Assembly: GCA_035708565.1 (NCBI GenBank)
Contig: DASSSF010000031.1
Coordinates: 10,277-74,276, forward strand
Reading direction: 5' to 3'
DNA from: Candidatus Limnocylindria bacterium
GTDB lineage: Bacteria; Chloroflexota; Limnocylindria; P2-11E
Length of the DNA: 64,000 nt
Below are positions 5,652-45,059 of this stretch, piece after piece; the first letter of the stretch is position 1; each line of letters opens with the position of its first letter. The position numbers and the translations under genes were made by a program. The notes beneath the pieces are model-generated. The model made no database searches and was not told the origin of the DNA. It worked only from the letters and a program-made list of their open reading frames with translations.

Positions 5652-6664
5652 GCGACCCGCCGCCCGATGGCCGCGGCGACGCCGGTGAGCTCGTCCATCA
5701 GATGCCGGAATCCCCGCGGGTCGAGCGACTGGGGCCCGTCGGAGAGCGCGCGCGACGGATCGGGGTGCGTCTCGATGAGCAGCGCGTCGGCGCCGCACGC
5801 GACGGCCGCGCGCGCGACCGGGCCGACGAGCTCGCGCCTTCCGGTCGCGTGGCTCGGGTCGACGACGACCGGCAGGTGGGTGAGCTCCTTCAGGACGGGC
5901 ACGGCGTTGATGTCGAGCGTGAAGCGCGTCGACTGCTCGAACGTGCGGATCCCTCGCTCGCACACGGCGACGTCCTCGTTGCCGTGCGCGAGGATGTACT
6001 CGGCCGCCTGGAGGAGCTCGTCCACGGTCGACCCGAGGCCTCGCTTGAGGAGGATCGGCCTGCCCGCGCCGCCGGCCGACCGGAGCAGCGCGAAGTTCGT
6101 CATGTTCCTCGCGCCGATCTGGAGGATGTCCGCGTGCTCCGCGACGAGCGCCACGTCCTCGGGCGTGACGACCTCGGTCACGACCGCCATCCCGTGCTCG
6201 TCCGCGACGGTGCGGAGGAGGCGGAGCCCTTCGGCGCCCAGGCCCTGGAACGAGTACGGCGACGTCCGCGGCTTGAACGCCCCGCCGCGCAGCACCTTCA
6301 CGCCCGCCGCCGCGACGTACGCGGCGGTCTCGCGGAGCTGCGCCTCGCTCTCGACCGCGCACGGCCCGGCCATCACGAGCACGTCCGGGCCTCCGAGGCG
6401 CGCGCCGTTCGCGAGCGTGATGACGCGGTCCGCCGGATGGAAGTCGCGGCTCGCGAGCTTGAACGGACGGAGGATGCGCACGACGCGCTCGACGCCGGGA
6501 AGCTCCTCGAACATCTCGGGCTCGTACCCGCGCTCGTCACCGACGATCCCGACGACCGTGCGCTCGACGCCGCGGGACAGATGCGCCCGGAACCCGAGCG
6601 AGCCGATCCGGTCGAGCACGACCTCGAGGTCGTTCTCGGTCGCGTCCGAGCGCATGACGATCAC
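5648..6664 (-). CDS. aroG: 3-deoxy-7-phosphoheptulonate (DAHP) synthase, type I-beta (KDO8P-synthase-like)
   Basis: 338 aa; GPCAVESEAQ...LKRG...HLPVVVDPSHATGRRELV is typical of Bacillus/Thermotoga-type DAHP synthases; ATGA overlap with the aroH stop. Confidence 0.8.
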   Translation of the reverse strand: MIVMRSDATENDLEVVLDRIGSLGFRAHLSRGVERTVVGIVGDERGYEPEMFEELPGVERVVRILRPFKLASRDFHPADRVITLANGARLGGPDVLVMAGPCAVESEAQLRETAAYVAAAGVKVLRGGAFKPRTSPYSFQGLGAEGLRLLRTVADEHGMAVVTEVVTPEDVALVAEHADILQIGARNMTNFALLRSAGGAGRPILLKRGLGSTVDELLQAAEYILAHGNEDVAVCERGIRTFEQSTRFTLDINAVPVLKELTHLPVVVDPSHATGRRELVGPVARAAVACGADALLIETHPDPSRALSDGPQSLDPRGFRHLMDELTGVAAAIGRRVA

Positions 6665-7246: not shown

Positions 7247-8107
7247 CTAGGGGTCGATGACCGTCGTCGCGGCGGGGTAGGTGCCGATGACCTGGACCCA
7301 CGCGCACGCGTGGCGCATGAGGGCGAGCGCCTCCGCGGCCGGCGCGACGGCGGGGTCGCCCTCGAAGTCGACGTAGAAGACGTAGTCCCACGCCGCGACG
7401 CGGCTCGGACGGGACTCGATGCGCGAGAGCTGCACGCCGGCGGTCGCGAACGGCTGGAGCGCGCGCACGAGCGCGCCGGGGACGTTGAGCGCGGTGAACG
7501 CGAGGCTCGTCTTCGGCGGTCCGGCCCGGAGCGCGGCGGGGACACCGGCGGCGTGCGCGGCGTCCCGCGCGACGGCGAGGAAGCGCGTGATGTTGTCCGC
7601 GGCGCTCTCGATGTCCTCGGCGAGCACGGTGAGGCCGTAGCGCTCGGCCGCGCGACGGCTCGCGATCGCCGCGATCGCCGGGTCGCCGCGCTCCGCGACC
7701 TCGGCCGCGGCGCCCGCGGTGTCGAAGGCGATCTCCGCGCGGATGCCGCGCTCGCGCAGGAAGGCGTCGGACTGCGCGAGCGCCTGCGGATGCGAGCGCG
7801 CGGCGCGCACGCCTCCGAGGGTCGCTCCCGGAGGGCCGAGGAGGCAGTGGCGCACGCGGACGAGCGCCTCGGCGAGGACGCGGATCCGCTCGTCGCCGCG
7901 GAGGAGGTCGAACACGTCGGCAACGGGCCCCGCGTACGAGTTCTCGACGGGAACGACCGCGGCATCCGCCGCCGCGTCGCGAAGGGCGGCGAACGCGGCG
8001 TCGAAGCTCGCGTGCGGGAGGAGCGTCGCCGACGGGAACAGCGCCGCCGCGGCGGACTCCGAGTACGCGCCTGCGACGCCCTGGAACGCGACGCGCAGCG
8101 CGGTCAC
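7247..8107 (-). CDS. pheA: Prephenate dehydratase
   Basis: RVAFQGVAGAYSE...PDT domain...TRF...ESRP plus ACT domain; ATG start overlaps the aroA stop (ATGA). Confidence 0.85.
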   Translation of the reverse strand: MTALRVAFQGVAGAYSESAAAALFPSATLLPHASFDAAFAALRDAAADAAVVPVENSYAGPVADVFDLLRGDERIRVLAEALVRVRHCLLGPPGATLGGVRAARSHPQALAQSDAFLRERGIRAEIAFDTAGAAAEVAERGDPAIAAIASRRAAERYGLTVLAEDIESAADNITRFLAVARDAAHAAGVPAALRAGPPKTSLAFTALNVPGALVRALQPFATAGVQLSRIESRPSRVAAWDYVFYVDFEGDPAVAPAAEALALMRHACAWVQVIGTYPAATTVIDP

Positions 8108-9375
8108 GCGAGTTCGCGGAGCATGTCGAAGAATCCGGGGTACGTCTTCGTGACCGCGTCGGCGCCCTCGATCGCGACGCCGGGCACCTGGAGCCCGAGC
8201 ACCGCGAACGCCATCGCGATGCGGTGATCGCCGCGCGCGTCGACGACGCCGCCGGCGAGGGGCGCGGGCTCCACGCGGATCGCGTCGGCGTACTCCGTCA
8301 CGCTCGCGCCGAGGGCGCGGAGCCCGGCCGCGACGGCGGCGACCCGGTCGCTCTCCTGCCGCCGCGTGTGCCCGATCCCGGTGAGCTCCGTGGGCGTCGA
8401 CGCGCAGGCGCCGATCACGGCGAGCGTCGGGAACACGTCGGAGCAGTCGCGGACGTCCGCCGTGACGCCGAAGAGCGCGCCGGTGCGCCTGACCGTCACG
8501 CCGAGGCCGCCGAAGGCGGACGCGTCGACCGCGCAGCCCGCCGCGCGGAGCAGGTCGAAGAAGCGCGCGTCGCCCTGCGCTCCCCGGCGCGTCGACGCGT
8601 CCACGTTCTCGACGGTCACCGACCCGCCGAGGATCGCGGCCGCGGCGGCCGGGTAGGTCGCGGCCGTCACGTCACCGGGGATCTCGACGTCGCGCGCGCG
8701 GACCTCCTGTGGCCGCACCTCGAAGGTGCGCGGCGCCGGGCGCGCGACCTCGACGCCGCGCGCCTCGAGCGCCGCCACGGTGAGCTCGACGAACGGCTCC
8801 GAGACGAGCGGACCGGTGATCCGCAGCCGGACCCCGTTCGCCGTGCGCGGCGCGGCGAGCAGGAGCGCCGACGCGAACTGGCTCGACTCGGCCCCCGACA
8901 CCGCGACCTCGCCGCCGGCCAGCGGGCCGGACACGGTGATCGGCAGCGCCTCGCCCTCGGCCGTGGCGCCGAGCGCCCGCAGCGCGTCCACGAGCGCGGC
9001 GATCGGCCGCCGGCGGAGCTGGGGGCTCCCGTCGACGGTCACGCGGCCGCCGCCCAGCGCGGCGAGGGCCAGGCCGAAGCGCGCGACGGTCCCGCCGTCC
9101 CCGGCGTCGACCGTGACGCTGCGGCCGGGCGGGGTCGGCGAGCCGCGCACGACGATGCGCTCGGCGTCGCGCGAGACCTCGTAGCCGAGGTCCACGAGCG
9201 CCTGCTGCATCGCGCGGACGTCGTCGCCCGGGTCAAGCGGGCCGATCTCGAGCCGCGACCTGCCCGCGGCGAGCGCCGAGAGGACGAGCTCCCGGTTCGT
9301 CACGCTCTTCGACGCGGGGACGCGCACGCGCTTCTCGATCGGGTGACGGATCGGGGGGATGGGTCGCGGAGCCAC
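8104..9375 (-). CDS. aroA: 3-phosphoshikimate 1-carboxyvinyltransferase (EPSP synthase)
   Basis: PASKSVTNRELVLSALAAG...GDGGTVARF...RPI...GDHRIAMAFAV; GTG start (VAPRPIPP...); 423 aa. Confidence 0.9.
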   Translation of the reverse strand: MAPRPIPPIRHPIEKRVRVPASKSVTNRELVLSALAAGRSRLEIGPLDPGDDVRAMQQALVDLGYEVSRDAERIVVRGSPTPPGRSVTVDAGDGGTVARFGLALAALGGGRVTVDGSPQLRRRPIAALVDALRALGATAEGEALPITVSGPLAGGEVAVSGAESSQFASALLLAAPRTANGVRLRITGPLVSEPFVELTVAALEARGVEVARPAPRTFEVRPQEVRARDVEIPGDVTAATYPAAAAAILGGSVTVENVDASTRRGAQGDARFFDLLRAAGCAVDASAFGGLGVTVRRTGALFGVTADVRDCSDVFPTLAVIGACASTPTELTGIGHTRRQESDRVAAVAAGLRALGASVTEYADAIRVEPAPLAGGVVDARGDHRIAMAFAVLGLQVPGVAIEGADAVTKTYPGFFDMLRELA

Positions 9376-9396: not shown

Positions 9397-10551
9397 GTGA
9401 CACGCAACGGCGGCGCCGGCCCGCTCGTCCTCGTCGCGGTCGCGGGCGTCCTCGCGGCCGGCGCCTACCTGTTCCTGTTCGGGGCGCCGTTCGCGGATCC
9501 CGCGACGTCCGCCCCGCGCGGCGGTGCGCCCTCCGCCTCCGCCTCGCCGCGCGCGACGCCCGCGCCGAAGCCGCCTGAGCTCAAGATCGCGCACGACACC
9601 TGCTGCACGCAGGCAGCGCGGTTCCTGAGCGTGACCTGGACGTCGTCGGAGCCCGTGAGCGAGGCTGCCGTGGCCGTCGCGCCGGACCCCGGGTTCGCGT
9701 GCGCCGCGACGGTCGACGAGAGCCGCGTCAAGGGCACGTTCGGATGCGCCGGGCTCCTGCGCGGCGGCGTCGACCACACCGCGACCCTCACGGTGCGGAC
9801 GGCCGCCGGATCGTTCCCGGTCGCGCACCGGTTCAGGACGATGGGCGACCGCCTCACGGACGTGAGGTGGTTCACCGAGTTCGAGGACCCGCGCGGCGAC
9901 CCCCTCGCGTGTGCCGCCGCGAGCGTGCGGATCGTGCAGAACTACACGACGGGCCAGGACAAGGCGACGGCCGAGCAGATCCTGCGACAGGGCCAGGGCC
10001 TCAACCGCAGCCGCGACCCCGGCATCGACCCGGTCGCGATCGCCGCGGTGCAGCGCGCGCTCGATCCGCGGAACGCCTACCACTACTACCGCTTCGACAC
10101 GCGCGAGGACGCGACGTACGCCGCGGTCTACTGGCTCCTGCGGAGCGGCAAGCCGGTCCACGTGATCACGCTCGCCGGGCAGCACGATCCGCTGCTCATC
10201 GGTTTCATGGGGACGTTCGGCACGCACTTCGGCGACCCCGCGAACGACGTCACCGGCGTCGTGGTGCAGGACCCGCAGCGAGGCGACATGCGGCCGGAGA
10301 CGCTGAGCCGCCGGCCCGACAAGTACCGCACGCCAGAGTTCCAGACCGGGCGCCTGCTCCTGCCGGGCGAGTGGTACCGCGACGAGTGGTGGCTCGGCTT
10401 CGCGTACGCGGCCGTGGTCGACGGCGTGAACATCGACCGGAACGACGGCGCGTACCCGCTGCCGCACTGGGCGGGGAAGTTCGTGATCGTCGTCGACGAT
10501 GCCGACCCTCAGTGGCCCGCCGACCGCGAAGGCAGGGTGAGGTTCCGATGA
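9397..10551 (+). CDS. Hypothetical membrane-anchored extracytoplasmic protein (N-terminal TM helix; possible Cys/His papain-like fold domain)
   Basis: GTG start; PLVLVAVAGVLAAGAYLFLF signal-anchor; strong GC3 bias; C-terminal domain with conserved Cys and His. Divergent from aroA with only about 21 nt between the starts. Confidence 0.5.
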   Translation: MTRNGGAGPLVLVAVAGVLAAGAYLFLFGAPFADPATSAPRGGAPSASASPRATPAPKPPELKIAHDTCCTQAARFLSVTWTSSEPVSEAAVAVAPDPGFACAATVDESRVKGTFGCAGLLRGGVDHTATLTVRTAAGSFPVAHRFRTMGDRLTDVRWFTEFEDPRGDPLACAAASVRIVQNYTTGQDKATAEQILRQGQGLNRSRDPGIDPVAIAAVQRALDPRNAYHYYRFDTREDATYAAVYWLLRSGKPVHVITLAGQHDPLLIGFMGTFGTHFGDPANDVTGVVVQDPQRGDMRPETLSRRPDKYRTPEFQTGRLLLPGEWYRDEWWLGFAYAAVVDGVNIDRNDGAYPLPHWAGKFVIVVDDADPQWPADREGRVRFR

Positions 10552-17790: not shown

Positions 17791-18674
17791 TCGAGCAGTT
17801 GATCGTCCCGATCATCGTCGCCGCGATCCTGATCTTCGTGATCAGGAACGTCGTCCACATCGTGCCCGAGTACCAGCGCCTCGTCGTGCTCCTATTCGGA
17901 CGCTTCCAGGCGATCAGGGGGCCGGGCCTGGTGATCCTGCTTCCGCCGCCGATCCAGTCGTCGCAGACCGTGGACCTCCGCGAGTTCGTCGTCGAGATCC
18001 CGGAGCAGACCTGCATCACGAAGGACAACGCGCCCATCTCGATCGACTTCCTCATCTACCAGAAGGTCGTCGAGGCGGCGGACGCGGTCCTCAAGGTCCA
18101 GAACTTCCGCGCCGCGGTCCAGGGCATCGCGACCACCACGCTCCGCGCCGTCATCGGCGACATCCCGCTCGACGACGTCCTCGCCAAGCGCGAGCAGATC
18201 AACGAGGTCCTGCGGGTGAAGCTGGACGACGTCACCCAGCGCTGGGGCGTGAAGGTGACCACGGTCGAGATCCGCGAGATCACGCCGCCGCGCGACATCC
18301 AGGAGGCCATGAACCGCCAGATGTCCGCCGAGCGGAACCGGCGTGCGGCGATCCTCGAAGCGGAGGGCCAGAAGCAGTCGGCGATCCTCGTCGCCGAGGG
18401 CCAGAAGCAGTCGGAGATCCTCAAGGCGGAGGGCGCCCGGCAGGCGGCGATCCTGCGCGCGGAGGGGTTCTCGCTCGCGCTCCGCAGCATCAACGAGACC
18501 GCGGCGACGGTGGACGCGCGCACGATGGCGCTCCAGTACCTCGACGCGCTCGAGAAGATCGGCTCGTCGCCGTCGACGAAGTTCGTGATCCCGACCGAGC
18601 TCACCGCCCTCGCCGCGCCGTTCGCGGCGTACTCCGCGACGCTTCGCGACGAGGGCGGGAAGGCCCGGAGCTAG
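17787..18674 (+). CDS. SPFH/band-7 (stomatin/prohibitin-like) protein
   Basis: VIEQLIVPII... TM anchor, PHB domain, C-terminal AEGQKQSAIL repeats; GTGA overlap with nfeD. Confidence 0.8.
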   Translation: MIEQLIVPIIVAAILIFVIRNVVHIVPEYQRLVVLLFGRFQAIRGPGLVILLPPPIQSSQTVDLREFVVEIPEQTCITKDNAPISIDFLIYQKVVEAADAVLKVQNFRAAVQGIATTTLRAVIGDIPLDDVLAKREQINEVLRVKLDDVTQRWGVKVTTVEIREITPPRDIQEAMNRQMSAERNRRAAILEAEGQKQSAILVAEGQKQSEILKAEGARQAAILRAEGFSLALRSINETAATVDARTMALQYLDALEKIGSSPSTKFVIPTELTALAAPFAAYSATLRDEGGKARS

Positions 18675-18987
18675 CGGCGCGAGCCCGGAAGGCCTGGGAT
18701 CCGGGCCGCGTCCGCGCGCTGCGGGAGCGCCATCGCGCGCGGCCTGCGCCGCGCGAAGGGGGAGTAGACGCGCGGCGGCAGCCGCAGGGCGGCCGCGACC
18801 GCCGCGCGCGCGTCGTCCCGTGGTGAGGGGGAGTGGGCGGTGGGAACGCGGACCAGGACCGCGGTCGCAAGGGCCATCGCTTCACCTCGGCGCTCTTCTG
18901 GAGCGGGCTCCGGACCTACGCGCAGGTCCCCTGCGTCTCGTCGGGGACCCACCCGGCGTCGGGGTGGCCCCGACGCAAGGGCGCTAC

Positions 18988-19021
18988 AGAACGGGCGTTC
19001 GCATCTTAGAACGGATGTTCA
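18988..19021. promoter_or_regulatory. Two tandem Cheo/SOS-box-like palindromes (AGAACgggcGTTCG and AGAACggatGTTCA), centres 20 bp apart, 32 nt upstream of the ligase-like gene
   Basis: Both fit GAAC-N4-GTTC with an RNRY spacer (Gram-positive LexA consensus CGAACRNRYGTTCG), one position off on the 5' flank. Confidence 0.4.
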
Positions 19022-19052
19022 GACTGTCAAGGGGCTCCCCGCGCCCGCCGTA

Positions 19053-19688
19053 ATGGGCATCCGCTCGGCATACTCGGCATGCTTGGTGGAAGCCCTTCTC
19101 GGCACGTCGCTCGCGCCGCAGCGCCCTCGGTACGTCCGAGAGAAGGCGGAGCCCGACGCGTACATCCTCGAGCCGGAGTGGTCGGGGACCCGGGCGCTCG
19201 CGAGGATCGGCCACGACGGACCGCGGTTCATGGGCTACGAGGGCCCGCTCGACGGCCCGCGCGGGCTGCACGAGGCGATCGCGGCCGACGCGCGCTGCGA
19301 GACGGCGATCATCGACGGCGTCCTCGTCCCGGACTGGCAGGACGAGACCGAGCTCGAGCTCGATGCCGAAGGGAACCCGCTCGTACGGCCGCAGGGCGGC
19401 CGGCGGATCTTCGCCGCGTTCGACCTGCTCGAGGTCGACGGCGAGCCGCTCATCGAGGTCCCGCTCCTCGAGCGGAAGCGGCACCTGGAAGGCATCCTGC
19501 GGCCGAGCCAGAACGTGCGCCTCACCACCTTCGTGACGCGGGGCCTCCGCGCCTGGCGCGACACGCTCCAGATCCAGGGCTTCCGGCGCGTCGTCCTCAA
19601 GGCGTGGAACAGCGGGTACTCGCCGGGTCAGACGAACGACGACTGGCTGGTGGTCGAGAAGATCGGGCCACCCAGGGAGAGAAAGTGA
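19053..19688 (+). CDS. ATP-dependent DNA ligase-like protein with degenerate nucleotidyltransferase motif I (probably non-catalytic)
   Basis: 212 aa; ILEPEWSGTRALA aligns to motif I ExKxDGxR with Lys to Glu and Asp to Ser; motif III AAFDLLEVDGEPL...LERKRHLE; motif V FRRVVLKAWNSGYSPGQTNDDWLVVEK. Stop overlaps the gdhA GTG (GTGA). Confidence 0.55.
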   Translation: MGIRSAYSACLVEALLGTSLAPQRPRYVREKAEPDAYILEPEWSGTRALARIGHDGPRFMGYEGPLDGPRGLHEAIAADARCETAIIDGVLVPDWQDETELELDAEGNPLVRPQGGRRIFAAFDLLEVDGEPLIEVPLLERKRHLEGILRPSQNVRLTTFVTRGLRAWRDTLQIQGFRRVVLKAWNSGYSPGQTNDDWLVVEKIGPPRERK

Positions 19689-20962
19689 CCACTCGGACGT
19701 CCGCGGTCATCGACCACACGCAGCGCGATCCGTGGGAGGTCGCGATCGAGCAGTTCGACCTCGCCGCGGACAAGCTCCACCTCGACCCGAACATGCGGGG
19801 GATCCTGCGCGAATGCCAGCGCGAGCTGACCGTTCACTTCCCGGTGAAGCTCCACGACGGCACGGTGAAGGTGTTCACGGGCTACCGCGTGCAGCACAAC
19901 ACCACGCGCGGCCCCGGGAAGGGCGGCATCCGCTATCACCCGTCCGTGACCCTCAACGAGGTCAAGGCGCTCGCGATGTGGATGACGTGGAAGTGCGCGT
20001 GCGTGGGCATCCCGTACGGCGGAGCGAAGGGCGGCGTCGTCTGCGACCCGAAGCACATGACGCAGCAGCAGCTCGAGACGCTCACGCGCCGGTACACGAC
20101 GGAGATCGAGCTCCTCATCGGCCCGGAGCGGGACATCCCCGCGCCGGACGTGAACACGAACTCGCAGACGATGGCCTGGATCATGGACACGTACTCGATG
20201 CACCAGGGGCACACGTCCCTCGCCGTCGTCACCGGGAAGCCGCTCTCGATCGGCGGGAGCGAGGGGCGCAACGAGGCCACCGCCCGCGGCGCGGTCTACA
20301 CGATCATCGAGGCCGCGAAGCACCTCGGCATCGACCTCGAAGGGTCGCGCGTCGTCGTGCAAGGCTTCGGCAACGCCGGCTACTTCAGCGCGAAGTTCAT
20401 GCACGAGCTCGGCGCGGTCGTCGTGGGCGTGTCCGACACCGGCGGCGGCATCCACAACCCGAAGGGCGTCGACCCCGTGAAGGTGCACGCGTTCAAGCGC
20501 GAGCACGGGACGGTCACCGGCTACCCGGGCGCCGAGAAGGTCGACAACGCCGACCTCCTCGAGCTCGACTGCGACATCCTCATCCCCGCCGCGATCGAGA
20601 ACCAGATCGGAGAGCACAACGCGCCGCGGATCAAGGCGAAGATCGTCGCCGAGGCGGCGAACGGTCCGACGAGCCCCGAGGCGGACAGGATCCTCTTCTC
20701 GCGGAACGTGTTCCTCATCCCCGACATCCTCTGCAACGCCGGCGGCGTCACCGTCTCGTACTTCGAGTGGGTGCAGGACCTCCAGAACCTCTTCTGGCGC
20801 GAGGCCACGATCAACGCGCGCCTCAAGGAGGTCATGGTGAAGTCGTTCGCCGACGTGCTCGAGATGGCGAAGAAGAACAAGGTCGACATGCGCACGGCGG
20901 CGTACATGGTGGCCGTGCACCGGGTCGCCGAGGCGACGCTCACCCGCGGCATCTACCCGTGA
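19685..20962 (+). CDS. gdhA: NAD(P)-specific glutamate dehydrogenase
   Basis: 425 aa; GPGKGGIRYHP, KCAxxGxPYGGAKGG, GFGNAGY Rossmann motif; GTG start. Confidence 0.9.
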   Translation: MTTRTSAVIDHTQRDPWEVAIEQFDLAADKLHLDPNMRGILRECQRELTVHFPVKLHDGTVKVFTGYRVQHNTTRGPGKGGIRYHPSVTLNEVKALAMWMTWKCACVGIPYGGAKGGVVCDPKHMTQQQLETLTRRYTTEIELLIGPERDIPAPDVNTNSQTMAWIMDTYSMHQGHTSLAVVTGKPLSIGGSEGRNEATARGAVYTIIEAAKHLGIDLEGSRVVVQGFGNAGYFSAKFMHELGAVVVGVSDTGGGIHNPKGVDPVKVHAFKREHGTVTGYPGAEKVDNADLLELDCDILIPAAIENQIGEHNAPRIKAKIVAEAANGPTSPEADRILFSRNVFLIPDILCNAGGVTVSYFEWVQDLQNLFWREATINARLKEVMVKSFADVLEMAKKNKVDMRTAAYMVAVHRVAEATLTRGIYP

Positions 20963-21070: not shown

Positions 21071-23734
21071 GTGCAGCTCGTCGCGATCGACCTCGAGACA
21101 ACGGGATGGGAGCCCGCGTCCGACCGGATCGTCGAGATCGGGGCGGTGCGGGTCGAGCTCGCGGACGACGGCGCGGTGCGGCTCGGGCGCGCGTACGCGA
21201 CCCTCGTGGACCCGGGCCGCGCCCTCGACCCGACGATCACGCGGCTGACGGGCATCCGGGACGAGGACCTCGTGGGCGCGCCTCCCGTGGGGGAGGCGAT
21301 CGCCGGTCTCGCGGCGTTCCTCGGCGACGACGCCGTCGTGGGGCACAACGTCCGCTTCGATCTCGGGTTCCTCGCGCACGCCGGGCTCGAGCCCGCCGGC
21401 GCGCTCGACACCGCGGAGCTCGCGTCGATCCTGCTCCCGACCGCCACCTCGTACGCGCTCACGCGCCTCGCCGCCGATCTCGCGGTCGAGGCGCCGGTCG
21501 CGCACCGCGCTCTCGCGGACGCCACGACGTGCGCCCTCGTCCTCGGCCACCTCGCGCGGGCCGCCGCGGACCTGGCGCCCGACGTGCTCGACGAGCTCGC
21601 GGCGACGGCCGCGCTCCTCGGGCCCGCGGCGTCGCGGTTCTTCGGCGCCGCGCTCGCGCGGAGCGTGCGCACGGCGTGGGACCGGCGGGCACCGGTGCGG
21701 CCCGCGCTGCCTCCGCGCGCCAAGGATCCCGCGAAGGCGGCCTCGCTGCGCGCCGCTCGCGCCTTCGCGCCGGGCGGGCCGCTCGCGGCGGCCTACCCGG
21801 CGTACGAGGACCGGCCGGAGCAGCGCGCGCTCGCCGAGGCGATCGAGCGGACCTTCGACGCCGGCGGCGTGCTCGTCGCGGAGGCCGGCACCGGCGTCGG
21901 CAAGTCGCTCGCGTACCTCGTCCCCGCGCTCGCGCGCGCGCTCGGCGGCGAGCGCACCGTCGTGAGCACGCACACGCTCCCGCTCCAGGACCAGCTCGTC
22001 CGGCGCGACATCCCGTCGCTCCAGGCGGCGCTCGGCACGGACGTACCGGTGGCGGTCCAGAAGGGCCGCTCGAACTATCTGTGCCCGCGCCGCTGGCAGC
22101 AGCTCCGGGCCACGGCCGCCACGCCGGAGGAGGCGCGGCTCGTCTGCAAGACGCTCGTCTGGCGCGCGTCGACGGTCGCGGGCGAGCGCAGCGAGCTGAA
22201 CCTGCTCGGTCCCGAGGGTGCCCTGTGGGCGCGCATCTCCGCTGACGACGAGTCGTGCACGCAGCGGCGCTGCGCCGCGACCCGCGGCGGCTGCTACCTC
22301 GAGCGCGCCCGCACCGACGCCGCCGCCGCCGACGTCGTCGTGGTGAATCACGCGCTCCTCCTCCACGACGCGAGGGCCGCGGGCTCGCTCCTTCCCGACG
22401 CCGAGCACGTCGTCGTCGACGAGGCCCACCACCTGGAGGACGTCGCGGCGGACGCGTTCGGCCACCGGCTCGAGGACTGGCGGTCGCGGCGCGACCTCGA
22501 CCGCGTCGCGCGCTCGCCGCTCGTGCTCTCCGCGCTGCGCTCCGCCGACGTCGCGCGGGTCCAGCGCGGCGAGGGGCTCCGTGAAGAGGTCGCACGCGCG
22601 CACGAGCGGGCCGGCGAGACGTTCGCCGCGCTCCGCGCGCTCGTCGTGCCGCCTGAGGAGCGCGTGCGGGTCACGGCGGGCGTGCGGCTCGCCGAGGAGA
22701 CGTGGCTGCCGGTCGAGCTGGCGGCGGAGCGCTTCGACGACGCGCTCGGCGGCGTGCAGCTCGCCGCGCAGCGCCTCATCGACGCCGGCGGCGACGACGA
22801 CGAGGTGGGGGAGCTGACGAGCGCGACGAAGGAGCTCATCGGCGCGCGGATGGCGATCGCGCGCGGCATCCACGACCCGCGCGCCGTCGAGATCGCGTGG
22901 CTCGAGGCGACCCGCGAGGCGGTCGGCCTGTACGTGGCGCCTTCCCACGTCGGCGGCGCGCTGCGGCGGCTCCTCGTCGACCGTCATCGCTCCCTGGTGC
23001 TCACCTCGGCGACGCTCGCCGTCGCGGGATCGCTCCGGTTCGCGACCGAGCGCTTCGGCGTCGCCGACATCGCCGACGAGCTCCTCGTCGGCTCGCCGTT
23101 CGACCACGCGACGCGGTCGCTGCTCGTCGTCCCCGCAGACATCGCCCTCCCGCACGAGGAGCAGCACCCGGCCGACGTCGCGTACGTCGTCGAGGAGGTC
23201 GCCCGCGCGCTCGGCGGCAGGACCCTCGTCCTGTTCACGGCGCACACCGCGATGCGCGACGTCGCCCGGCGTCTCGAGGGGCTCGCCGATGCCGGGATCG
23301 CCGTCCTCACCCAGGGCGTCGACGGCTCGCGCCGCGCGCTCCTCGACCGCTTCGCCGCTGGGTCGAGCGTCCTCCTCGGCACGCGTTCGTTCTGGGAAGG
23401 GGTCGACCTCCCCGGCGACCTGCTCCAGTGCGTCCTCGTGACGCGCATCCCCTTCGACGTGCCGGACGACCCGCTCGTCGAGGGCCGGGCCGAGCGGTAC
23501 GACGACCCGTTCAACGAGTACCAGCTGCCGCAGGCCGCGCTGCGCCTCCGTCAGGGCGCCGGCCGGCTCATCCGCACCGCGACCGACCGCGGCGCGATCG
23601 TCCTCCTCGACCGGCGGATCGTCGCCCGCGACTACGGGCCCACGCTCATCGCGTCGCTGCCGCCTGCGCGTCTCGTGCGCACCACGGTCGACGAGGTCGC
23701 GAGCGTCGTCGCTCGACACGTGGCCGCGTCCTAG
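21071..23734 (+). CDS. dinG: DnaQ-like 3'-5' exonuclease fused to a DinG/Rad3-family ATP-dependent helicase
   Basis: N-terminal AIDLETTG...GHNVRFD...HRALADA exonuclease motifs; helicase motif I AEAGTGVGKSLAYL, DEAH box VVVDEAHHLED, 4Fe-4S Cys cluster, C-terminal helicase motifs. Confidence 0.85.
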   Translation: MQLVAIDLETTGWEPASDRIVEIGAVRVELADDGAVRLGRAYATLVDPGRALDPTITRLTGIRDEDLVGAPPVGEAIAGLAAFLGDDAVVGHNVRFDLGFLAHAGLEPAGALDTAELASILLPTATSYALTRLAADLAVEAPVAHRALADATTCALVLGHLARAAADLAPDVLDELAATAALLGPAASRFFGAALARSVRTAWDRRAPVRPALPPRAKDPAKAASLRAARAFAPGGPLAAAYPAYEDRPEQRALAEAIERTFDAGGVLVAEAGTGVGKSLAYLVPALARALGGERTVVSTHTLPLQDQLVRRDIPSLQAALGTDVPVAVQKGRSNYLCPRRWQQLRATAATPEEARLVCKTLVWRASTVAGERSELNLLGPEGALWARISADDESCTQRRCAATRGGCYLERARTDAAAADVVVVNHALLLHDARAAGSLLPDAEHVVVDEAHHLEDVAADAFGHRLEDWRSRRDLDRVARSPLVLSALRSADVARVQRGEGLREEVARAHERAGETFAALRALVVPPEERVRVTAGVRLAEETWLPVELAAERFDDALGGVQLAAQRLIDAGGDDDEVGELTSATKELIGARMAIARGIHDPRAVEIAWLEATREAVGLYVAPSHVGGALRRLLVDRHRSLVLTSATLAVAGSLRFATERFGVADIADELLVGSPFDHATRSLLVVPADIALPHEEQHPADVAYVVEEVARALGGRTLVLFTAHTAMRDVARRLEGLADAGIAVLTQGVDGSRRALLDRFAAGSSVLLGTRSFWEGVDLPGDLLQCVLVTRIPFDVPDDPLVEGRAERYDDPFNEYQLPQAALRLRQGAGRLIRTATDRGAIVLLDRRIVARDYGPTLIASLPPARLVRTTVDEVASVVARHVAAS

Positions 23735-44169: not shown

Positions 44170-44994
44170 CTAGAGGACGAGCCGCGCGGTCCGGAGCTGC
44201 GGCGAGTCGTCTTCGGTCTCGCCCGCGGAGAGCGGGAGCCCGAGGTACGCGCCGCGCACGATCGCCCACTCGCGTATCCGCGCTGGGTCGAGGCCGATCG
44301 CGGCGAACGCGGCGGTCCATCGCTCGATCCGCGCCCGCGTGGGGACCGAGCCGATCGGGTTCCAGAAGAACGTCGGCACGTCGAACTCGGGCTCGCCCGC
44401 CATGGCCTTCGCGTCGATGACCACCCACCGGTCGCCGTGGCGGAGGACGTTGTGGTGGTGCAGGTCGCCGTGCACGAGCGTGCCGTCGCGCACGTCCATC
44501 TTCTCGAAGGTCTCGCGCGCGATCCGCAGGAGCTCGTGCTCACCCGCGTTCTCGATCCACCGCGGCACGTGGCCGCGGAGCGAGCGGAACGGATGCCCGT
44601 GCGGGAGCGGACGCCAGATCCGGCGCGCGACCGAGAGAGCCGCGGCGAGCGCCTCCTCCTCGCCCACGGCGGCGGCCTCGGTGCCGGGCACGGCGCGCTC
44701 GACGAGCATCGCCCGGCGGGCGCGGTCGTGCCGCAGGAGGCGCACGGCGCCGTCGCCCGCCCAGAGCGCGAGCGCGTCGGCCTCGTGGTCCGCCTCGTCG
44801 TCCTCGACCGGCGTGACCTTGAGGATCGCGTCAGGGCCCGCGTAGGCGACGAACGAGTAGCGCCCGGTCTCGATCGTGGCGCCCAGCGCGACGCCCCACT
44901 CGCCGGCGACCTCGCGGGCGGTCGCCTCGAGCCGCCCCCTGACCCGCCCGGTGAGCCCCCACGGCGGCCGGTCGAGCCAGGCGCTTTCAGGCAC
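44170..44994 (-). CDS. Aminoglycoside/small-molecule phosphotransferase (APH-type kinase) family protein
   Basis: HGDLHHHNVL catalytic loop, VIDAKAMAGEPEFD. Confidence 0.65.
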   Translation of the reverse strand: MPESAWLDRPPWGLTGRVRGRLEATAREVAGEWGVALGATIETGRYSFVAYAGPDAILKVTPVEDDEADHEADALALWAGDGAVRLLRHDRARRAMLVERAVPGTEAAAVGEEEALAAALSVARRIWRPLPHGHPFRSLRGHVPRWIENAGEHELLRIARETFEKMDVRDGTLVHGDLHHHNVLRHGDRWVVIDAKAMAGEPEFDVPTFFWNPIGSVPTRARIERWTAAFAAIGLDPARIREWAIVRGAYLGLPLSAGETEDDSPQLRTARLVL

Positions 44995-45059
44995 TTGCGC
45001 TCGCTAGAACGTCTGTTCTATCATTCGCCGGCATGGACGGGCCGGCGGATACCCAGCGG

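Follow-up and report, generated by a model that had tools for sequence, protein, structure and literature searches.

A gdhA-linked protein family of Limnocylindria derived from the adenylation domain of ATP-dependent DNA ligases and predicted to be non-catalytic

We identified a family of DNA ligase-like proteins in soil Chloroflexota that have lost the ligase catalytic residues, starting from a gene located directly upstream of the glutamate dehydrogenase (GDH) gene gdhA in Candidatus Limnocylindria bacterium (metagenome-assembled genome, GenBank assembly GCA_035708565.1). The window is the whole 64,000-nt stretch that was analysed, positions 10,277 to 74,276 of contig DASSSF010000031.1 (GC content 73%), and all coordinates refer to it. 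The protein, here called pseudo-ligase, is a single-domain homologue of the adenylation, or nucleotidyltransferase (NTase), domain of LigC/LigD-type ATP-dependent DNA ligases. The family is real, conserved and undescribed: the searchable literature contains no description of DNA-ligase-derived pseudoenzymes in bacteria, and Pfam, NCBIfam, PADLOC and PHROGs hold no family specific to pseudo-ligases. On balance, we consider it probable that the pseudo-ligase is a non-catalytic ligase-fold binding protein which is co-expressed with gdhA from a leaderless mRNA, and that the main SOS target at this locus is the divergent neighbour, a gene for a small basic protein. We know of no cultured, genetically studied members of the class Limnocylindria, and the searchable literature held nothing relevant on the LexA/SOS system of this class.

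Ligase homology and predicted fold

A scan of species-representative genomes revealed 181 stretches encoding pseudo-ligase relatives, the best 80 of which were all Limnocylindria-type contigs. With metagenome loci added, 84 loci with an intact gene were obtained. The 84 aligned sequences, over which residue counts were taken, comprise two subfamilies, the gdhA-linked pseudo-ligases and a sister family that is described below.

A first-pass annotation, made from the DNA sequence without database searches, had aligned the product with the adenylation domain of ATP-dependent ligases, and profile and structure searches bore this out. From the single sequence the homology is clear but weak: Pfam PF01068 (DNA_ligase_A_M) scored 28.8 bits against a cutoff of 26.2 and covered the C-terminal half only, and the NCBIfam model NHEJ_ligase_lig (NHEJ, non-homologous end joining) matched residues 32–199 at 1.2e-11, far below the model's trusted cutoff. 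A profile of the family matched archaeal DNA ligases and Mycobacterium tuberculosis LigD in the PDB at 4e-9 to 2e-6. An AlphaFold2 model built on the 84-sequence alignment reached a predicted local distance difference test score (pLDDT) of 90.8 and a predicted TM-score of 0.86, superseding a run on a shallow alignment of 27 close sequences (pLDDT 63.6). The best PDB matches of this model in Foldseek were all adenylation domains of ATP-dependent DNA ligases, including the LigD structures 6nhz and 1vs0 (TMq 0.6–0.73). Because the model is confident and its matches are all ligases, the NTase fold assignment can be considered secure at the level of structure prediction.

The ligase domain of M. 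tuberculosis LigD (Rv0938 LigDom, PDB 1VS0 and 6NHZ) shares with the pseudo-ligase the NTase fold (Foldseek E ~1e-7, 22–24% identity), as well as the EPxWxGxR frame, the motif III Asp-Gly, FDLL..DG, the PLLERKR helix, the motif IV Lys, SxYxPG and the motif V Trp. In contrast to LigD/LigC, the pseudo-ligase has the Lys nucleophile, the motif I Asp, the motif III and IV Glu, the PGxR Arg and the motif V lysines replaced, it lacks an OB domain with motif VI as well as POL and PE domains, and the window has no Ku gene nearby. The adenylation domains of archaeal and eukaryotic ATP-dependent ligases (PDB 3RR5 and 2CFM; human Lig1/3/4) were the best profile and structure matches; these enzymes consist of three domains (DNA-binding, NTase and OB) with six motifs, whereas the pseudo-ligase is an NTase domain alone with dead motifs. 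Searches against PADLOC and PHROGs were negative for the pseudo-ligase, for the sister protein and for the small basic open reading frame (ORF) described below. A scan of viral contigs returned relatives only at ~30% identity, which were taken as true ligases without inspection, and no close family member. No second ligase-like gene was found in the window.

Active-site motifs

Motifs were mapped from two alignments, one of the family profile to PDB ligases and the other with genuine LigC/LigD-like ligases from the same search (Table 1; numbering follows the 200-aa version of the protein). Both agreed with the first-pass reading of motif I as EPEWSGTR, in which Lys and Asp are both replaced. 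Other assignments had to be revised. FDLLEVDG, taken for motif III, is motif IIIa, and the true motif III has changed from DGELV to DGVLV with loss of its Glu. The motif IV Lys, reported as lost, is present as K172, and it is the Glu of this motif that is replaced. Of the motif V region, described as present, the Trp could be recognised and the two lysines of W-x-K-x-K could not (WLVVE).

Table 1. Ligase motifs in true ligases and in the pseudo-ligase
Motif	True ligases	Pseudo-ligase	Change
I	E-x-K-W-D-G-x-R	E29-P-E31-W-S33-G-T-R36	Lys to Glu, Asp to Ser
III	D-G-E-L-V	D77-G-V79-L-V	Glu to Val
IIIa	F-D-L-L..D-G	intact	none
IV	G-L-E-G-V-x-x-K	G-F-R167-R168-V-V-L-K172	Glu to Arg, Lys kept
PGxR	P-G-x-R	P-G-Q-T	Arg lost
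V	W-L-K-x-K	W187-L-V-V-E191	both Lys lost (Val, Glu), Trp kept

The losses are shared by the family. The Lys nucleophile, the motif III Glu and the motif V lysines were each found in 0/84 sequences, as was the motif IV Glu, which is an Asp in one distant member of the sister family. Across relatives, the nucleophile is replaced by Glu, Asp or Ala, or by Leu or His, the motif III Glu by Val or Ile, and the motif IV Glu by Arg, Lys or other residues, and motif V reads V-x-E/D or T-x-T. The protein ends ~12 residues past motif V, leaving no OB domain and no motif VI, and the same is true in all 82 gdhA-linked loci. Other positions were retained: the motif I Glu and Gly in 84/84 sequences and its Arg in 81/84, the motif III Asp in 84/84 and the motif IV Lys in 83/84.

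In ligases, an acidic residue in motif I and a lysine in motif IV contact adenine N6 and N1, and the base is stacked between the motif IIIa aromatic residue and a motif IV aliphatic residue, whereas the phosphates, the ribose and the leaving group are handled by the motif I and V lysines, the motif III Glu and motif VI (PMC7470946). Residues of the first kind are kept in the pseudo-ligase (E29, F112, the motif IV aliphatics and K172) and those of the second kind are gone, which indicates that the family has retained the adenine pocket and lost the ligase chemistry. With the nucleophile, the motif I Asp, the motif III and IV Glu, the motif V lysines and the OB domain with motif VI all lost, the protein is expected to have no ligase function: it would be unable to form ligase-AMP or to seal DNA. 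The first-pass prediction of a non-adenylating pseudo-ligase is thus strongly supported and extends to the whole alignment: none of the 84 sequences has the catalytic residues of motif I, III or V.

Extent of the gene, predicted start and selection

The frame and stop codon of the first-pass ORF (19053–19688) were retained, and its start at ATG 19053 and length of 212 aa were rejected (Table 2). This ATG lies 5' of the conserved −10 hexamer, and the extra N-terminal residues show no conservation at the protein level; the 'G/A-Y-S-A' likeness among N-terminally extended gene calls is translated GGATACTCGG, whose conservation is at the DNA level. The NCBI gene call (P0001) has 200 aa and is 100% identical to the window pseudo-ligase. 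An xATACT hexamer was found just 5' of the coding region in 69/84 distinct orthologous loci, preceded by TGn, and so forming an extended −10 element, in 45 loci; the first in-frame start lies 8–9 nt past the hexamer in 32 loci and 11–16 nt past it in 16. Given this spacing and the lack of a Shine-Dalgarno sequence, the pseudo-ligase mRNA is predicted to be leaderless or nearly so, with a product of 200–201 aa.

At least eight loci (L011, L015, L022, L030, L033, L037, L039 and L049; locus positions ~5985–6005) have no ATG, GTG or TTG between the −10 element and the conserved N-terminus LGADLxPQRPR. Those of the eight that were read by eye have an in-frame CTG 7 nt past the hexamer (GATACTCGAGTCCTGAGC), and the sequences suggest a leaderless CTG start in this group of orthologues. 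An Rfam search over 18400–19900 gave nothing significant. A long plus-strand ORF at 19079–20962 was discarded, as it is the gdh frame extended upstream and gdh orthologues align from 19685.

Table 2. Features of the pseudo-ligase locus in the window
Feature	Position	Strand	Remarks
Small basic ORF	18671–18877	-	68 aa (MALATAVL...RLPPRVYSPF...RAMALP...); pI (isoelectric point) ~12; target of the minus-strand promoter
Cheo box 1, GAACGGGCGTTC	18989–19000	.	putative LexA operator; covers the predicted start site, just 3' of the −10 of the minus-strand promoter; in most loci
Sigma-70-type promoter	19003–19030	-	−35 TTGACA 19030–19025, 16-nt spacer, −10 TAAGAT 19008–19003
Cheo box 2, GAACGGATGTTC	19009–19020	.	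putative LexA operator; within the 16-nt spacer of the minus-strand promoter; TAGAAC-N4-GTTC-N4-6-TGTCAA in 84/86 loci
−10-like hexamer CATACT	19069–19074	+	8 nt 5' of TTG 19083; followed by no Shine-Dalgarno sequence
Pseudo-ligase ORF	19083–19688	+	200–201 aa; likely start TTG 19083 or GTG 19086; stop TGA 19686–19688; single NTase domain
gdhA	19685–20962	+	ELFV-type glutamate dehydrogenase, 425 aa; Shine-Dalgarno AGGGAG inside the pseudo-ligase 3' end
DnaQ-like exonuclease fused to DinG-type helicase	21071–23734	+	conserved 3' of gdhA; RNase_T, DEAD and Helicase_C_2 in orthologues

The core of the gene is intact, with no internal stops, in 84 loci from Candidatus Limnocylindria, and stops inside tblastn matches occur only at the true stop or 5' of the true start. 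The median pairwise ratio of nonsynonymous to synonymous substitution rates (dN/dS) was 0.26 (gdh, 0.15; Band7, 0.27; DinG-like gene, 0.36), and ~65 residues are invariant among 27 sequences with 64–81% identity to the window protein. The GC content at third codon positions (GC3) is 0.94, typical of coding sequence in the window (gdh, 0.97; Band7, 0.98). By these comparative measures the gene is under purifying selection and is not a frameshifted remnant. The first-pass annotation had named membership of an unrelated family, or a frameshifted pseudogene of a full-length ligase, as outcomes that would speak against it, and neither was seen: the protein is a ligase NTase homologue encoded by an intact, constrained gene.

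Linkage to gdhA and the surrounding gene block

As first noted, the pseudo-ligase TGA and the gdhA GTG overlap as GTGA at 19685–19688. We further checked this junction in 82 distinct loci and found that the spacing between the pseudo-ligase stop and the start of gdh was negative (an overlap, mostly of −4) in 14 loci, 0–20 nt in 53 and 21–40 nt in 15, and exceeded 40 nt in none; it fell within −10 to +40 nt in 81 loci, and the remaining locus is an overlap. Conservation of the linkage, which the first-pass annotation had raised as a question, therefore holds as a gap of at most 40 nt in 82/82 Limnocylindria loci, but the literal overlap is limited to 14 of them, and the sister family does not have the gdhA pairing. 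The pseudo-ligase-gdhA pair was kept down to 46% protein identity (L085 and L090). Transcription from its own −10 element would yield a leaderless mRNA of a two-gene operon, in which the pseudo-ligase gene precedes gdhA.

The gene pair is part of an NfeD-Band7-...-gdh-DinG block that is syntenic across the class, and since the whole block is conserved in order, adjacency alone is weak evidence for a functional link. The DnaQ-DinG gene 3' of gdhA showed no Cheo box of its own. In a sub-clade of loci (L010–L012, L015, L019, L022, L027, L030, L032, L034 and L037–L039; locus positions ~7890–9140), ~1.2 kb of extra sequence separates gdh from the DnaQ-DinG gene, and ~3.5 kb does so in L041 and L050. 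The gdh-DinG adjacency is thus less fixed than that of the pseudo-ligase and gdh.

Cheo boxes and a divergent gene for a small basic protein

The first-pass annotation had placed the pseudo-ligase gene behind tandem Cheo boxes. The boxes are real and conserved; the SOS control of the pseudo-ligase that was implied is weak, as the promoter they overlap lies on the minus strand and reads away from it. The window contains three perfect Cheo boxes compared with 0.44 expected, a number that 0/100 shuffles reached. The arrangement box 1, 8–10 nt, TAGAAC-N4-GTTC, 4–6 nt, TGTCAAGAGG was found in 84/86 loci, and some deep branches have box 2 only. The minus-strand promoter matches the sigma-70 consensus at 10/12 positions (one site compared with 0.2 expected); across loci its −35 element is invariant and its −10 element is conserved as TAtnaT. 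Promoters under tight LexA repression classically have one operator in the spacer and another over the start site. With one box in the spacer and the other over the predicted start site, the core promoter of the small minus-strand ORF is the likely target of LexA.

The small ORF is preceded by a GAGGTG Shine-Dalgarno sequence 5' of its ATG, and its GC3 is 0.91 compared with 0.52 for its upstream extension. Orthologues share MA(I/V)A, WRxPPRVYSP, RRLxRPMAVP and a basic tail. We found 116 database homologues, of which those with a taxon name were mostly assigned to Limnocylindria or Chloroflexi, and neither the small ORF nor these homologues contained a Pfam domain. Even the most distant homologues lie between Band7 and the pseudo-ligase. 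The small basic protein is a candidate new lineage-specific SOS effector, judging from its promoter and distribution. The Band7 gene (plus strand) and the small ORF (minus strand) converge on a palindromic CTAG at 18671–18674, in which both TAG stops overlap; the same 4-nt overlap was present in the gene calls of L002, L003 and L004, and no intrinsic terminator was predicted between the two genes.

Divergent SOS pairs with Cheo boxes are known in Gram-positive bacteria, such as lexA/yneA in Bacillus subtilis, where a small, poorly conserved, lineage-specific protein is produced from a LexA-boxed promoter. The present locus is similar in that a gene for a small lineage-specific protein is divergent from its neighbour and has a Cheo-boxed promoter. 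It differs in that the divergent neighbour is the pseudo-ligase-gdhA operon, not lexA, and that the small protein has neither a transmembrane segment nor a LysM domain. A tblastn search of the window with an approximate B. subtilis LexA query found no lexA.

Box 2 ends 48 nt before the pseudo-ligase −10 element in the window, 30 nt before it in 20 loci and 16–18 nt before it in 40 loci. In these 40 loci box 2 occupies the −35 position, so LexA would block the pseudo-ligase promoter there. For some relatives it is therefore plausible that LexA controls the pseudo-ligase-gdhA operon; for the window this is doubtful.

The third perfect Cheo box (TAGAACGTCTGTTCTA, 45007–45018) lies in the spacer of a plus-strand promoter-like site, TTGCGC-18-TATCAT (44995–45024), that points antisense into a gene for a PduO-type adenosyltransferase (45060 to ~45590, minus strand). 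Relative to a minus-strand kinase-like gene (44170–44994), the same box lies 13 nt upstream. No perfect Cheo box of its own was found for recA (~45.8–46.9 kb).

Wider family and the sister pseudo-ligases

An exhaustive profile search of 1.84 billion representative sequences gave 2964 matches at E<=0.001 and 209 at <=1e-10, of which 150 were listed. Among the listed matches, most short ones (200–280 aa) had EPxWxGxR without Lys, no K-x-K and no OB domain, and those of at least ~290 aa with an OB domain had E-x-K-W-D-G-x-R and W-L-K-x-K. In the source databases, pseudo-ligases are labelled 'hypothetical', 'ATP-dependent DNA ligase' or 'LigD'.

One group of relatives, the sister family (P0142 type, ~230 aa, Chloroflexota), has 30–36% identity to the gdhA-linked pseudo-ligases. 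It shares with them the dead motifs EPLWSGxR and DGV/I, the absence of K-x-K and the absence of an OB domain. It differs in the insert that separates motif III from motif IIIa, which is longer, and in the motif IIIa stacking position, where Phe is replaced by Val or Leu in most members. Its genomic context is also different, with the order HNH nuclease, CCA-adding enzyme, TPR protein, NAD-dependent epimerase and pseudo-ligase (L086–L088, L091 and L093). In 3/5 of these loci the pseudo-ligase start overlaps the epimerase stop or follows it with a 1-nt gap, there was neither gdh nor a Cheo box within 5–6 kb, and the small basic ORF was absent from this context. In 4/5 loci the sister pseudo-ligase is followed by a 350–465 aa protein with no Pfam match and then by a Usp-glycosyltransferase.

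The typical Limnocylindria gene order, with 60–68% identical proteins, was also observed on contigs L023, L041, L052, L070 and L071, and likewise for P0418. These contigs were deposited as metagenome-assembled genomes (MAGs) of Udaeobacter, Bathyarchaeia, Acidiferrales, Saccharimonadales and Methylomirabilota, and such Limnocylindria-like contigs under foreign MAG names are probably binning errors.

Discussion

The favoured interpretation is that a stand-alone NTase domain descended from LigC/LigD-type ATP-dependent DNA ligases, lost its chemistry and now most likely serves to bind either a ligand that contains adenine or another protein. The adjacent LexA operator would mainly repress the divergent near-consensus promoter of the small basic protein, and the pseudo-ligase promoter would be within reach of LexA only where box 2 occupies the −35 position, as it does in some relatives but probably not in the window. 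What the protein binds is a matter of speculation; in order of preference, we would name an adenine ligand and/or the operon partner, then damaged DNA or repair proteins, and then the small basic SOS protein.

Several points weigh against this interpretation. The synteny with gdhA could reflect general gene-order conservation within one class, as Band7 and DinG are equally syntenic, and the transcription start sites are predicted. The acidity of the protein (pI 5.4; family median, 5.75) argues against strong DNA binding and gives nothing positive for a ligand. Loss of the stacking Phe in the sister family indicates that ligand binding may not be family-wide, and the invariant Glu and Lys could be retained for structure. 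It is also formally possible that K172, as a conserved lysine, is a migrated nucleophile.

Other explanations were considered. That the gene is a decaying pseudogene or a spurious ORF of a high-GC genome was suggested by a Pfam score barely over threshold and by the richness of such DNA in long spurious ORFs, but the comparative data (84 intact loci, the dN/dS of 0.26, the GC3 of 0.94, ~65 invariant residues among 27 sequences and a confident fold prediction) effectively refute this and leave it a negligible probability. A different role, that of an SOS-regulated repair accessory factor whose dead ligase domain senses nicks or ends and recruits or blocks repair enzymes (DnaQ-DinG or a real ligase), would agree with descent from NHEJ-type ligases, with tandem Cheo boxes 33–66 nt upstream, with the −35 placement of box 2 in the 40 loci and with the conserved DinG-like gene downstream. 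We find it unlikely, as the protein is acidic and has no OB domain, latch or DNA-binding domain by which ligases hold DNA (PMC7470946), 48 nt separate the boxes from the −10 element in the window, the sister family has neither Cheo boxes nor nearby repair genes, and the second gene of the operon encodes a central-metabolism enzyme.

Two further proposals concern binding partners. It is very unlikely, in our estimate, that the pseudo-ligase and the divergent small basic SOS protein form a two-gene module in which the former is an antagonist, chaperone or DNA mimic of the latter. The two have opposite charge (pI 5.4 and 12) and a common control region, the small ORF, even in its most distant homologues, occurs only beside the gdhA-linked subfamily, and this subfamily has a specific invariant acidic loop, DWxDExxLExDxxGN, between motifs III and IIIa; however, adjacency is a weak argument within a syntenic NfeD-Band7-...-DinG block, sister pseudo-ligases occur without the small ORF, and regulation probably differs, with one gene SOS-dependent and the other constitutive. 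A shade less likely again is that the protein regulates, or senses nucleotides for, the NAD(P)-dependent enzyme encoded next to it, as a subunit of GDH here and of the NAD-dependent epimerase in the sister family. No precedent exists for such a subunit, the gene order differs (5' of gdh and 3' of the epimerase), the sister family does not conserve the aromatic residue that stacks on the base, and two contexts only were sampled, even though the gdhA operon is tight in 82/82 loci down to 46% protein identity, the sister gene is coupled to a Rossmann-fold epimerase gene by an overlap or 1-nt gap in 3/5 loci, and the adenine contacts E29 and K172 are kept, in contrast to the lost contacts to phosphate, metal and ribose (roles according to PMC7470946).

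Database labels such as 'ATP-dependent DNA ligase' or 'LigD' on these proteins would inflate the inferred NHEJ and repair capacity of abundant soil Chloroflexota. With an adenine pocket selectively kept in many species and an operon shared with a central metabolic enzyme, the family provides a clean test case for re-use of the NTase fold in binding. The same locus defines, in Limnocylindria, a strongly conserved putative LexA-controlled promoter and a candidate for a new lineage-specific small SOS protein. Distinctly unlikely, but of the widest consequence, is a role as an adenine-nucleotide-binding regulatory module that steers the operon partner (GDH, or the epimerase in the sister clade), or as a neutraliser of the divergent SOS-induced basic peptide; if true, the central nitrogen and redox metabolism of Limnocylindria would be linked to DNA-damage signalling.

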